NCBI RefSeq assembly: GCF_055900595.2
Contig: NZ_CM148325.1
DNA length: 64,000 nt
Strand: one strand, 5' to 3'
The position numbers were made by a program. This document shows positions 38,401 through 41,400 of the stretch, one piece after another; position 1 is the first letter of the stretch; each line of letters starts with the position of its first letter.

Positions 38401-41400
38401 CCATCAATAATGATGTCTATTTAAGTGATGATGTTTTTAATAATAACCAGGCATATACATCAACAAGTTACAGTGATGGCGATGGCGGTGCAATCGATGT
38501 CACCGATAATAATAGCGATATCACGCATCCGTCAGGTTTCACAATAATAAATAACACCGCATTTACAAATAACACTGCCGAAGGTTATGGCGGGGCAATT
38601 TATACCAATAGCGTGACGGCTCCCTATCTTATTGATATTTCTGTTGATGACAGCTACAGCCAGAACGGCGGTGTGTTAATCGATGAGAACAATAGCGCAG
38701 CAGGCTATGGGGATGGTCCTTCCACTGCGGCGGGCGGCTTTATGTATCTCGGCTTAAGTGAAGTTACCTTTGATATTGCTGACGGAAAAACGCTGGTTAT
38801 CGGCAATACAGAGAATGATGGAGCTGTTGACTCTATTGCTGGTACCGGGTTGATCACCAAAACAGGTTCCGGCGATCTGGTACTTAATGCAGATAACAAT
38901 GACTTTACTGGTGAGATGCAGATTGAAAACGGTGAAGTTACCCTGGGTCGCAGCAACTCCCTGATGAATGTCGGAGATAATCATTGCCAGGACGATCCGC
39001 AAGACTGCTACGGTCTGACGATAGGGAGCATTGATAAGTACCAGAATCAGGCAAAGCTAAATGTTGGCTCCACCCAACAAACCTTTGTGCACGCATTGAC
39101 GGGCTTTCAGAATGGCACTTTAAATATCGATGCTGGTGGCAATGTTACTGTTAATCAAGGCAGTTTTGCTGGCACCATCGAAGGTGCTGGTCAGCTCACC
39201 ATTGCGCAAAACGGCAGCTACGTGCTGGCAGGGGCGCAGTCGATGGCGCTAACTGGCGATATAGTCGTTGATGATGGCGCGGTGCTTACGCTAGAAGGCG
39301 ACGCGGCAGATCTCGCCGCTCTCCAGGACGAGCCGCAGTCGATCGTGTTAAACGGCGGTGTGCTCGATCTCTCTGATTTCTCCACCTGGCAGAGCGGCAC
39401 ATCATACAACGATGGCCTTGAAGTCAGCGGCAGCAGCGGAACGGTTATCGGCAGTCAGGATGTGGTAGATCTTGCAGGCGGAAACGATATGCATATCGGC
39501 GGCGACGGGAAAGATGGCGTCTACGTGGTGGTCGATGCGGGTGATGGGCAGGTCAGCCTGGCAAATGACAATCAATACCTCGGCACAACGCAAATTGCTT
39601 CCGGTACGCTGGTGGTGAGTGACAACTCGCAGCTTGGAGATACCCTCTATAACCGCCAGGTTATCTTTACCGATAATCAACAAGAAAGCGTGATGGAGAT
39701 TACTGCCAATGTCGATACTCGCTCTACAACGGTTGAGCATGGGCGTGATATTGAAATGCGCGCCGACGGTGAAGTGGCAGTTGATGCGGGGGTAGACACG
39801 CAGTGGGGCGCACTGATGGCTGACAGCAGCGGGCAGCATCAGGATGAGGGTAGCACATTGACTAAAACGGGGGCTGGCACCCTGGAGCTGACCGCCAGCG
39901 GTACGACGCAGTCGGCGGTGAGAGTAGAAGAAGGCACGCTGCAAGGCGATGCTGTGAATATCTTTCCTTATGCTTCGTCGCTGTGGGTCGGTGACGGAGC
40001 AACATTCGAGACTGGCGCAGATCAGGATATCCAGTCTATTGATGCTACTTCCAGCGGCACTATCGACATCAGTGATGGCACCGTTTTGCGCCTGACGAGT
40101 CAGGATACTTCCGCCGCACTGGATGCCTCGCTGTTTAACGGCGACGGTACGTTGGTGAATGCCACCGATGGCGTGACGTTGACAGGCGAGCTTAATACTA
40201 ACCTGGAAACTGACAGCCTGACCTATCTTTCCGATGTGACGGTTAATGGTGATCTAACCAATATGTCCGGTACAGTCAGTCTGCAAAATGGTGTCGCTGG
40301 CGATACGCTCACGGTAAACGGTGATTACACCGGCGGTGGTACGTTGTTTCTCGACAGCGAATTAAACGGCGATGACTCGGCAAGCGACCAACTGGTGTTG
40401 AACGGCAATACCTCAGGTAACACGACCGTGGTGGTTAACCCCATTACCGGCATTGGTGAACCGACTTCTACAGGTATTAAAGTGGTTGATTTCACTGCTG
40501 ATCCCACGCAATTTCAAAACAATGCGCAGTTTAGTCTTGCGGGCAGCGGCTACGTCAATATGGGCGCGTATGACTACACGCTGGTGGAAGATAACAACGA
40601 CTGGTATCTGCGATCGCAAGAAGTAACGCCACCATCGCCACCTGATCCAGACCCGGACCCAACTCCCGATCCTGCTCCCACGCCAGATTCTGATCCAACA
40701 CCCGACCCGGCTCCAGCCCCTACGCCTGCCTACCAGCCGGTGTTGAATGCCAAAGTTGGTGGATATTTTAATAACCTGCGGGCGGCAAATCAGGCGTTTA
40801 TGATGGAGCGACGCGATCACACTGGTGGCGATGGTCAGACGCTGAATTTACGTGTTATCGGCGGACGTTATCATTACACGGCGGCAGGGCAACTGGCTCA
40901 GCATGAAGACACTTCTACGGTGCAGCTTAGCGGTGACCTGTTTAGGGGGCGCTGGGGTGATGACGGCGAATGGATGCTAGGGGCCATTGGTGGTTACAGC
41001 GATAACCAGGGCGACAGCCGCTCGAATATGATCGGAACTCGCGCCGATAACCAGAACCACGGTTATGCCGTTGGGCTGACCTCAAGCTGGTTTCAGCACG
41101 GTAGCCAAAAACAGGGGGCCTGGCTGGATATCTGGCTGCAATACGCGTGGTTTAACAATGATGTTTCCGAACATGAAGATGGCGTGGATCATTACCACTC
41201 ATCGGGGATTATCGCCTCGCTGGAAGCCGGGTATCAGTGGTTACCGGGGCATGGTGTGGTGATTGAACCACAGGTGCAGGTGATTTATCAGGGGGTGCAG
41301 CAGGATGATTTTACCGCTGCTAACCATGCGCGGGTATCGCAATCGCAGGGCGATGATCTTCAGACGCGGTTGGGGATACACAGCGAATGGCGTACCGCTG

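Follow-up and report, generated by a model that had tools for sequence, protein, structure and literature searches.

In the window, the whole 64,000-nucleotide stretch of DNA analyzed here, the gene for the autotransporter adhesin YfaL/EhaC contains a run of 33 codons that very probably encodes a proline-rich, acidic spacer, and the length of this linker varies between strains of Escherichia coli. The fetched E. coli genomes encode linkers of 33, 31, 29, 23, and 21 residues, a 17-residue linker is found in E. coli database proteins, and every length difference seen is a multiple of 6 nt, that is, of one Pro-X unit. Variation of this kind had been predicted in an earlier sequence-only reading of the same DNA, and the comparison of alleles across strains that it proposed returned several lengths, not a single length common to all strains. 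The coordinates of the tract and of the features around it are collected in Table 1.

Table 1. Features in and around the proline-rich tract of yfaL, with positions numbered along the window
Feature	Position	Strand	Basis and remarks
yfaL/ehaC CDS	37872..41636	+	1254 aa from the K-12-homologous start; ORF translation, RefSeq annotation, Pfam
Mechanical ORF	37866..41636	+	1256 aa; its start codon is an in-frame ATG that a SNP has introduced upstream
Passenger C-terminal end, autochaperone/pertactin-like β-helix cap ending ...NNDWYLRSQEVT	40251..40628	+	Pfam, 4MEE alignment, AlphaFold
33-codon (Pro-X)n spacer PPSPPDPDPDPTPDPAPTPDSDPTPDPAPAPTP	40629..40727	+	Sequence, translation, composition, allele comparison, AlphaFold coil
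First 6-nt (Pro-Asp) insertion relative to the K-12 type	40656..40661	+	Global alignment, codon comparison
Second 6-nt (Ala-Pro) insertion relative to the K-12 type	40710..40715	+	Global alignment, codon comparison
Conserved AYQPVLN, then predicted barrel-pore α-helix	40728..40793	+	AlphaFold, 4MEE alignment
Predicted pore helix	40749-40793 (aa 962-976)	+	AlphaFold model residues 162-176
Outer-membrane β-barrel translocator	40839..41633	+	Pfam PF03797; model strands 192-455; Foldseek
Antisense 135-aa ORF overlapping the tract	40413..40820	-	ORF list

The gene in the window is an orthologue of YfaL/EhaC, a classical (type Va) AIDA-I-type autotransporter adhesin. The annotation under the match reads “yfaL: AIDA-I family autotransporter adhesin YfaL/EhaC” in 5,419 of 5,419 matching E. 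coli complete genomes, and the nrdA-yfaL-ubiG-gyrA gene order is conserved between the window, where nrdA, ubiG, and gyrA are the neighbors, and the fetched loci; both observations agree with the gene name given in the earlier reading. The YfaL/EhaC proteins of K-12 and O157:H7 share the locus, the domain order, and the position of the (Pro-X)n linker with the protein encoded in the window. Its N-terminus, MRIIFLRKEYLSLLPSIIASLFSVNSIA, resembles a Sec signal peptide as judged by eye, and a 28-aa signal peptide is listed for K-12 YfaL (PMC13101318). A review also groups YfaL among the autotransporter adhesins (PMC9289746).

The protein is 1254 aa long in the window versus 1250 aa in the K-12 type (a 3753-nt CDS). 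From end to end, the two genes are 92.2% identical at the nucleotide level, all gaps in their alignment fall within the linker, and the proteins share 1159 of 1254 residues. Two 6-nt insertions, both inside the tract, account for the difference of 1254 versus 1250 aa, in keeping with the earlier remark that the ORF is a few codons longer than that of K-12. The alignment puts the first of these at 40656, but positions a few bases away in the repeat would do equally well; the same extra GACCC(A/G) unit is also found in the 23- and 17-residue alleles, and the 31-residue alleles have an insertion of the same kind as the Ala-Pro one at 40710. At the 5′ end, a T>G SNP turns the ATT-AAT-ATG of the K-12 type into ATG-AAT-ATG, and the upstream ATG lengthens just the mechanical ORF, by two codons; the ORF start at 37866 is therefore a SNP artefact and unfit for annotation. 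The tract accordingly corresponds to aa 922-954 of the 1256-aa mechanical ORF and to aa 920-952 when counted from the K-12-equivalent start.

Within this tract, proline accounts for 17 of 33 residues, versus 16 of 1221 in the remaining protein (Fisher p ~1e-20). From tract residue 5 on, the odd positions are occupied by Pro in 14 cases out of 15 and by Ser in one, and the even positions by D, T, or A, so that Pro alternates strictly with a second residue over at least 10 residues. The peptide quoted in the sequence-only reading is identical to the plus-strand translation, and its coordinates, 40622-40732, begin 7 nt ahead of the tract and end 5 nt beyond it. Its description of a Pro/Asp-rich tract with imperfect repeats stands; the term “(PDPT)n nucleotide repeats” is too strong. 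Tandem Repeats Finder (TRF) detects no tandem repeat in 40400-40900 at a score of at least 30, the lowest threshold, and a repeat search with 6-nt seeds finds four copies at spacings of 18, 18, and 12 nt, three of which are 65 to 70% identical to the reference copy at the nucleotide level (65 to 75% overall when the K-12-type allele is included). The true periodicity is that of a Pro-X dipeptide (6 nt) within a PDPDPT hexapeptide super-period (18 nt). This super-period is clean in the K-12-type allele, whose 29-residue linker contains three PDPDPT units, and degenerate in the 33-residue linker of the window, which carries several Asp-to-Ala replacements and one Pro-to-Ser replacement.

The position of the tract between passenger and translocator, also proposed earlier, is borne out by Pfam, by AlphaFold, and by comparison with a solved structure. 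In the Pfam search, PATR and Chlam_PMP repeats precede the AC_1 (PF18883; aa 796-906, E = 2.2e-18) and Pertactin (PF03212; aa 813-916) domains on one side of the tract, and the Autotransporter beta-domain (PF03797; aa 995-1234, E = 1.7e-33) lies on the other. AlphaFold modeled the C-terminal 456 aa with a mean pLDDT of 92.9. In this structure, the final strand of the passenger terminates at aa 921 (model residue 121), the tract is a coil with no helix or strand (block-mean pLDDT of 70 to 87 over model residues 121-160), and a helix is located between the tract and the first of the long antiparallel strands that form a 12-stranded barrel. A coil at this intermediate confidence is compatible with a stiff rod or with a flexible tether. 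The best PDB match of the model in a Foldseek search is the AIDA-I transport unit 4MEE (TM-score of 0.92 on the target, rmsd of 1.5 Å), and further matches include the barrels of EspP, Hbp, BrkA, and NalP. A phmmer search against the PDB likewise aligns 4MEE on either side of the tract: its residues 29-137 align with the passenger end and the chain from residue 149 on with the helix region. The IcsA autochaperone structures 3ML3 and 5KE1 also match the C-terminal end of the YfaL passenger. The match to 4MEE would place the predicted α-helix inside the barrel pore, and these models support an arrangement in which the tract would join the autochaperone end of the passenger to the helix plugging the 12-stranded β-barrel.

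Allele frequencies were estimated from two samples of 60 genomes each (120 rows), taken with different queries at even steps down the similarity ranking. About 65% of the 120 sampled rows carry 29 residues, the length seen in K-12 and O157, followed by 23 residues (21%), 31 residues (7%), and 21 residues (5%). The two samples agree closely, with 39 and 39 rows for the 29-residue length, 12 and 13 for 23 residues, 4 and 4 for 31 residues, and 3 and 3 for 21 residues. A protein homologue search with the C-terminal 456 aa, which returned mostly fragments or truncated gene calls, including many Shigella sonnei partials, added 17- and 19-residue linkers and a linker-less variant. The 33-residue allele of the window is the longest among the E. 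coli length alleles seen. Its region is found at an identity of at least 99% in 9 of 5,419 complete genomes, all of which show the same 451-nt span at 99.3 to 99.8% identity, which implies the same linker length. In two of these, Z0117EC0005 and 2020CK-00188, the tract was read and encodes a 33-residue linker identical to that of the window; for 2020CK-00188, PGAP calls yfaL at 1254 aa.

The nine genomes bear on a set of readings in which the tract is something other than a protein segment of variable length, namely, that the real element is an antisense ORF or a structured RNA, or that the extra length is an assembly artefact. The 135-aa antisense ORF does overlap the tract. However, the plus-strand frame belongs to an uninterrupted 1254-aa yfaL orthologue with its full domain architecture. 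A Pfam search with the antisense ORF gave nothing at E ≤ 1, and neither strand of 40300-41000 matches an Rfam family; on these negatives, the antisense-ORF and RNA-element readings were rejected. The tract DNA is locally C-rich (GC of 0.65, GC skew of -0.38), and we regard the antisense ORF as the shadow of this C-rich coding strand rather than as part of any feature. As for an assembly artefact, nine separately assembled complete genomes share the exact 451-nt span. We therefore give this set of readings practically no credence and retain that of a protein spacer.

The indels in the tract are located between short imperfect direct repeats, and either slippage or unequal recombination between these repeats would fit as the mechanism. 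The earlier proposal of slippage is thus compatible with the 6-nt indels; a high slippage rate is not seen, and recombination fits as well. Since the repeat copies are only 65 to 75% identical and TRF finds no repeat, classical slippage should be inefficient. Among the alleles, a prefix (PPSPP or PTPPP) and a suffix (PDPEPTP or PDPAPDPTP) occur in all four combinations, which suggests that recombination between alleles contributes too. The tract is partly or wholly absent in one complete genome, VTB97022v, and in one metagenomic gene call. One case points to repeat-mediated change: in the K-12-type gene, the 12-nt repeat CTGATCCCACGC occurs in the linker and again 168 nt upstream, whereas VTB97022v retains a single copy and lacks exactly the 168 nt between the two. 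Given such variants without part or all of the tract, the tract may be dispensable for export.

Strain-dependent length in a repetitive, low-complexity sequence might also point to a contingency locus, in which frequent slippage of a simple-sequence repeat switches or tunes YfaL expression within a clone. Several observations argue against it. Besides the lack of a TRF repeat and the low identity of the copies, the Pro codons are mixed (CCA 8, CCT 4, CCC 3, CCG 2), and all length changes are in frame. A single linker length is found across the sampled K-12-derived strains and a single one across the sampled O157:H7 genomes; the K-12-type region is conserved across 537 nt, at 99% identity or higher, in 1,916 genomes, and the span is equal in nine of nine genomes with the window allele. 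Neither a frame-shifting change of tract length nor within-clone variation was found in the sampled genomes and the nine window-allele genomes. A 1-nt-shorter match in MS20657, the sole frameshift in the region, was examined as a candidate linker frameshift and rejected, since the deletion sits ~60 nt upstream of the tract. Frequent switching is thus highly improbable: the length alleles are stable within lineages, and this is not a phase-variable locus. The preferred course of events is that occasional slippage, or unequal or homologous recombination, at the imperfect 6-nt and 18-nt repeats would lead to the in-frame gain or loss of Pro-X units and produce a small set of stable, lineage-associated E. 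coli length alleles of 17 to 33 residues.

A further possibility is that the polymorphism in length and sequence results from diversifying selection by host antibody or phage on a surface epitope, i.e., adaptive antigenic variation, an idea put forward for the proline-rich repeats of Bordetella pertactin (regions R1 and R2). The tract is predicted to be exposed at the surface, it has accumulated many replacements within ~30 residues (D/A, P/S, P/Q, D/V, E/A, T/I, and S/L), and the 92.2% nucleotide identity of yfaL to the K-12 type compares with 97.3% for gyrA and 96.7% for ubiG. However, the divergence of yfaL peaks at nt 1801-2700 of the gene (87 to 88% identity) and not in the linker, and the length alleles are few, each of them common to hundreds to thousands of genomes. 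Diversifying selection on the tract appears unlikely on this balance, and a loosely constrained spacer accounts for it better. If function needs just a segment that is extended and roughly this long, its sequence and length would be only loosely constrained.

As a spacer, the tract would be found outside the outer membrane, at the cell surface, where it would link the autochaperone cap, which is the last β-helix rung of the passenger, to the pore-filling α-helix. Strict Pro-X alternation is incompatible with helix or sheet. By analogy with the proline-rich region of TonB, we infer an extended, fairly stiff, polyproline-II-like conformation and a spacer role; 33 residues in this form would span ~10 nm and could hold the passenger off the mouth of the barrel and the lipopolysaccharide core, while the Asp residues would keep the spacer soluble and negatively charged.

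From the location, length classes, and composition of the tract, one could go further and suppose that linker length is adaptive or, more speculatively, that the linker mediates an acid-triggered release; we regard either extension as quite improbable. Were length adaptive, the reach of the passenger through the lipopolysaccharide O-antigen or capsule layer would be governed by the linker, whose 17 to 33 residues would measure 5 to 10 nm as a polyproline-II rod, and allele length would be expected to co-vary with the type of surface polysaccharide, deciding whether the adhesin is exposed or shielded. Asp-Pro is the most acid-labile peptide bond, and in the case of acid release, the seven Asp-Pro bonds of the tract would free the passenger during gastric passage.

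A strain-dependent spacer length is an ordinary finding for the protein family of YfaL; yfaL has long been annotated as an E. coli autotransporter adhesin, and the 33-residue length is present in RefSeq, e.g., in 2020CK-00188. In a limited literature search, we found no paper describing the linker polymorphism of YfaL/EhaC. The linker provides a compact length marker that separates haplotype groups of yfaL. It is also relevant to surface display. The C-terminal 465 aa of K-12 YfaL (aa 786-1250) are listed as a scaffold for a cell-surface display anchor (PMC13101318), and these coordinates include the region holding the proline-rich linker. Users of this anchor should be aware that linker length in nature spans 17 to 33 residues. 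The lack of part or all of the linker in VTB97022v and in the metagenomic call suggests that it can be shortened.

As a rule, members of the family carry a proline-rich spacer where passenger and barrel meet. Across 147 diverse homologues, the equivalent segment has a median length of 35 aa (range, 12 to 107) and a median Pro content of 33%, with at least 25% Pro in 122 of them, and the consensus of a 76-sequence alignment at this position is NWYLxS......PxPxPxPxPxPxPxPxP...RPExGxY. AIDA-I (4MEE), the closest solved structure, aligns with YfaL in its autochaperone-like domain, pore helix, and 12-stranded barrel, but has ~11 residues between the two aligned stretches versus 44 in YfaL; the proline-rich tract is thus an insertion relative to AIDA-I. 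TibA, the self-associating autotransporter of enterotoxigenic E. coli, belongs to another autotransporter subgroup, and, by description, its tract of ~50 residues occupies the same position as that of YfaL: an “additional proline-rich domain” (residues 627-677) keeps the membrane-embedded domain apart from the junction (autochaperone) region (PMC3835316). The R1 and R2 regions of Bordetella pertactin are proline-rich passenger repeats, present in different copy numbers in different alleles and species (PMC8931430). They are described as large loops between β-helix rungs, whereas the YfaL tract lies between passenger and barrel. The repeat units of pertactin, GGxxP and PQP, are also unlike the Pro-Asp/Thr units of YfaL. 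The physical model for the YfaL tract is the (Glu-Pro)n-(Lys-Pro)n region of TonB, with which it shares alternating X-Pro dipeptides. This region is reported to be an extended rod, polyproline-II-like in conformation, that bridges a defined distance within the cell envelope (PMC5413942, citing Kohler et al. 2010). TonB has no relationship to YfaL, and its rod is periplasmic, longer, and zwitterionic, whereas the YfaL tract would be extracellular and is purely acidic, so that the likeness is one of analogy and not of homology.

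A megablast search with 451 nt around the Pro/Asp-rich tract finds matches in 5,419 of 5,426 E. coli complete genomes, one per genome, annotated as “yfaL: AIDA-I family autotransporter adhesin YfaL/EhaC”, and the order of the neighboring genes nrdA, ubiG, and gyrA is common to the window and the fetched genomes. A 47-aa gene, ypaB, is annotated between nrdA and yfaL in a K-12-type genome (L003 353-496) and likewise in strain 2020CK-00188 (L015 355-498). The placement of the linker between passenger and translocator, proposed in the sequence-only reading, is borne out by the Pfam domains, by alignment to the AIDA-I transport unit (PDB 4MEE), and by an AlphaFold model. 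The 4MEE alignment covers both sides of the tract (query residues 10-118 with chain residues 29-137, and 163-450 with 149-463), with about 11 residues at the junction in AIDA-I versus 44 in the window YfaL. The model, which covers the C-terminal 456 aa and rests on an alignment of 76 sequences, has a mean pLDDT of 92.9. Its passenger strands run to model residue 121; the tract is predicted as coil (block-mean pLDDT 70-87 for residues 121-160), and a helix at residues 162-176 (aa 962-976) lies ahead of the barrel strands. In a Foldseek search, the best PDB match of the model is 4MEE (TM-score 0.92 on target, rmsd 1.5 A), followed by the barrels of EspP, EstA, Hbp, BrkA, and NalP. Thus, the tract is the segment between the passenger autochaperone cap and the pore helix and, by homology with solved autotransporters, is predicted to lie on the extracellular side of the barrel.

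Coordinates of the tract, its ORF and domains, and the genes compared
Feature	Window position	Strand	Protein position	Remark
Pro-rich tract	40629-40727	+	aa 922-954 of the 1256-aa mechanical ORF	in frame, 33 codons
ORF holding 40622-40732	37866-41636	+		ORF list
yfaL from the start homologous to K-12	37872-41636
Chlam_PMP and PATR repeats				YfaL, Pfam
AC_1			aa 796-906	Pfam
Pertactin			aa 813-916	Pfam
Autotransporter beta-domain			aa 995-1234	Pfam
ubiG	41776-42498
gyrA, 5' part	42645-44412

The peptide quoted initially, PPSPPDPDPDPTPDPAPTPDSDPTPDPAPAPTP, exactly matches the translation of the plus strand, and the span first assigned to it (40622-40732) contains the tract but is a few bases too wide on either side. 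Pro accounts for 17 of its 33 residues, versus 16 of 1221 in the remainder of YfaL (Fisher p about 1e-20); beginning with residue 5, Pro occupies 14 of 15 odd positions, and the even ones hold Asp, Thr, or Ala. Locally, the DNA is rich in C (GC 0.65, GC skew -0.38), and Tandem Repeats Finder detects no tandem repeat in it at score 30. There are four repeat copies spaced by 18, 18, and 12 nt, three of them 65-70% identical to the reference copy, whereas the K-12-type allele has a clean 18-nt period (PDPDPT) with copies 67-75% identical to its reference copy. The nucleotide-level repeat is therefore weak: an imperfect repeat is present, as had been noted, but its basic unit is a Pro-X dipeptide with a hexapeptide super-period and not (PDPT)n. 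All four Pro codons are used (CCA 8, CCT 4, CCC 3, CCG 2), and because these synonymous codons are mixed, the peptide repeat is not a DNA repeat. CCG, the commonest Pro codon in E. coli, looks under-used in window 40629-40727 (2 of 17 Pro codons). An antisense gene or RNA element at the tract was considered and rejected.

The K-12-type yfaL of strain JME66 has 3753 nt and encodes 1250 aa. Its global alignment with the window gene (92.2% identity) contains two gaps only, each corresponding to a 6-nt insertion in the window; the alignment puts them at 40656 and 40710, both within the tract. The window yfaL therefore encodes 1254 aa and is indeed a few codons longer, as initially suspected. The mechanical ORF reaches 1256 aa because a T>G SNP creates an in-frame ATG upstream (window 37866-37874 reads ATG-AAT-ATG, the K-12 type ATT-AAT-ATG). 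PGAP assigns 1254 aa to yfaL of 2020CK-00188, which carries the identical 33-residue linker.

Linker length clearly differs between strains, as the sequence-only reading had anticipated. In two 60-row samples, drawn with different queries in even steps along the similarity ranking, the 29-residue linker is found in 39 and 39 rows (~65%), the 23-residue one in 12 and 13 (~21%), the 31-residue one in 4 and 4 (~7%), and the 21-residue one in 3 and 3 (~5%); the two samples are concordant. A 19-residue linker occurs in one orthologue that is 83% identical. Identity to the window region reaches 99% or more in only 9 of the 5,419 E. coli complete genomes, and 100% over 451 nt in none; the next-closest haplotype (94% identical) has a 31-residue linker. 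Together with the range of lengths, these counts make the window allele the longest seen, and a rare one. That the longer tract is an assembly artefact can be rejected, as all 9 of these independent genomes span exactly 451 nt; the 2 whose linker was read both encode the identical 33 residues. The database protein nearest to window 40266-41633, P0001, differs by a single residue (Thr versus Ala in RRDH-T/A-GG); this truncated gene call of 647 aa comes from “Escherichia sp. KS167_9B” (unclassified Escherichia).

Linker alleles of YfaL taken from fetched loci and from database proteins
Length	Linker	Carriers
33 aa	PPSPPDPDPDPTPDPAPTPDSDPTPDPAPAPTP	window, Z0117EC0005, 2020CK-00188
31 aa	PPSPPDPDPTPDPDPTPDPDPTPDPAPDPTP, plus PTPPP-prefixed version	CRE10, K_EC180, CS6L
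29 aa	PPSPPDPDPTPDPDPTPDPDPTPDPEPTP	K-12 type; O157:H7 with one Pro>Gln; PTPPP-prefixed versions
23 aa	PPSPPDPDPDPTPDPDPTPDPIP	THO-010; O111:H8 with Ser>Leu
21 aa	PPSPPDPDPTPDPTPDPEPTP	MINF_7C, KOr021
17 aa	PPSPPDPDPDPTPDPIP	E. coli database proteins

All length differences seen are multiples of 6 nt (6, 12, 18, 24, 30, and 36). The reading frame alone would need multiples of 3 only, so the 6-nt steps fit a process in which entire Pro-X units are gained or lost between short repeats. Exactly one PDPDPT unit separates the 23-residue allele from the 17-residue one; between the 29- and 21-residue alleles the difference is 24 nt, and the deletion is bounded by GATCC-type microhomology. Repeat-mediated deletion is seen directly in one case, strain VTB97022v (NZ_CP178670.1). 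The K-12-type gene has one copy of the 12-mer CTGATCCCACGC in the linker and a second copy 168 nt farther upstream; VTB97022v has a single copy (L011 about 1503), and the intervening 168 nt are precisely what it has lost. This in-frame deletion of 56 codons (equivalent to window 40498-40665) removes the final part of the autochaperone domain plus the linker's first half, yet the annotation still treats this yfaL as intact (1194 aa). All four combinations of the prefixes PPSPP and PTPPP with the suffixes PDPEPTP and PDPAPDPTP are found, a pattern that implies either recombination or repeated mutation. The window allele, too, has a mosaic look: its 5' part, which carries the extra GACCC(A/G) unit, resembles the 23- and 17-residue alleles, and its 3' part the 31-residue ones. 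The slippage originally invoked agrees with indels in multiples of 6 nt between short repeats but is one plausible mechanism, not a demonstrated one, and these data cannot separate it from unequal or homologous recombination. The idea that the tract is a contingency locus is rejected, as a near-perfect repeat, frameshifting changes, and within-lineage variation are all absent. The tract is not hypermutable: the K-12-type region is at least 99% identical over 537 nt in 1,916 genomes, and a single linker length is found among the sampled O157:H7 genomes and likewise among the sampled K-12-derived strains. In MS20657 (NZ_CP082077.1, L013), yfaL is annotated as frameshifted; it has a 1-nt deletion in the GAYDYT codons, ~60 nt upstream of the linker, and an additional 72-nt deletion farther upstream in the passenger; both lie outside the Pro-rich tract.

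The 92.2% identity of yfaL to the K-12 type compares with 96.7% for ubiG and 97.3% for the 5' part of gyrA; these flanking values suggest a window lineage well separated from K-12, and the adhesin gene diverges faster than its housekeeping neighbors. This difference and the many replacements in the tract make its antigenic diversification, as in pertactin, possible; however, the most divergent part of yfaL is not the linker but gene nt 1801-2700, where nucleotide identity falls to 87-88%. The window copy is intact. Z0117EC0005 (NZ_CP098223.1), among the closest complete genomes, shows 99.97% identity in the first 3290 nt of yfaL, which is a pseudogene there owing to an IS3-family transposase inserted in the beta-barrel part (L001 4289-5466; about window 41160-41240). 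Dozens of “partial” YfaL fragments from Shigella sonnei (560-644 aa, among P0027-P0115), on contigs mostly of about 1.7-1.9 kb and a few of about 8 kb, all stop near the autochaperone domain's end or the linker. Their shared stopping point suggests that contigs break here repeatedly, probably because of an IS insertion in S. sonnei yfaL.

Alternating Pro-X sequence is incapable of forming helix or sheet. At about 0.31 nm per residue, linkers of 17-33 residues would span roughly 5 to 10 nm, and the Asp residues would keep them acidic and soluble. The tract is likely to serve as a stand-off spacer, keeping the passenger at a distance from the mouth of the barrel and from the inner lipopolysaccharide layer, and the constraint on it may be one of composition and approximate length, not of exact sequence. 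P0009, a gene call on a 3-kb metagenome contig (ENA), has GAYDYT joined straight to PAYQPV, so that the entire linker and the final autochaperone strand are missing, through either a real deletion or an assembly artefact. Taken with the VTB97022v genome, which lacks part of the tract, it suggests that the linker may not be essential for export. The C-terminal 465 aa of K-12 YfaL, listed as an anchor scaffold for surface display (PMC13101318), by coordinates include the linker region.

With the C-terminal 456 aa as query, a HMMER search through all 1.84 billion cluster representatives retrieves 2,029 homologues at E <= 1e-10. In 147 of the best 150 of these, the junction segment has a median length of 35 aa (range 12-107) and a median Pro content of 33%, with at least 25% Pro in 122 of 147; 76 of the 147 contain a (Pro-X)3 or longer run, often as plain tandem peptide repeats. 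The majority consensus of the 76-sequence alignment reads NWYLxS......PxPxPxPxPxPxPxPxP......RPExGxY. Judging from these counts and this consensus, a Pro-rich spacer of variable length at the junction is a family trait. YfaL is a known protein whose linker is typical of its family, and the 33-residue length is already present and annotated in RefSeq; no paper in the literature collection searched describes the polymorphism of the YfaL linker. [quoted passage not shown]
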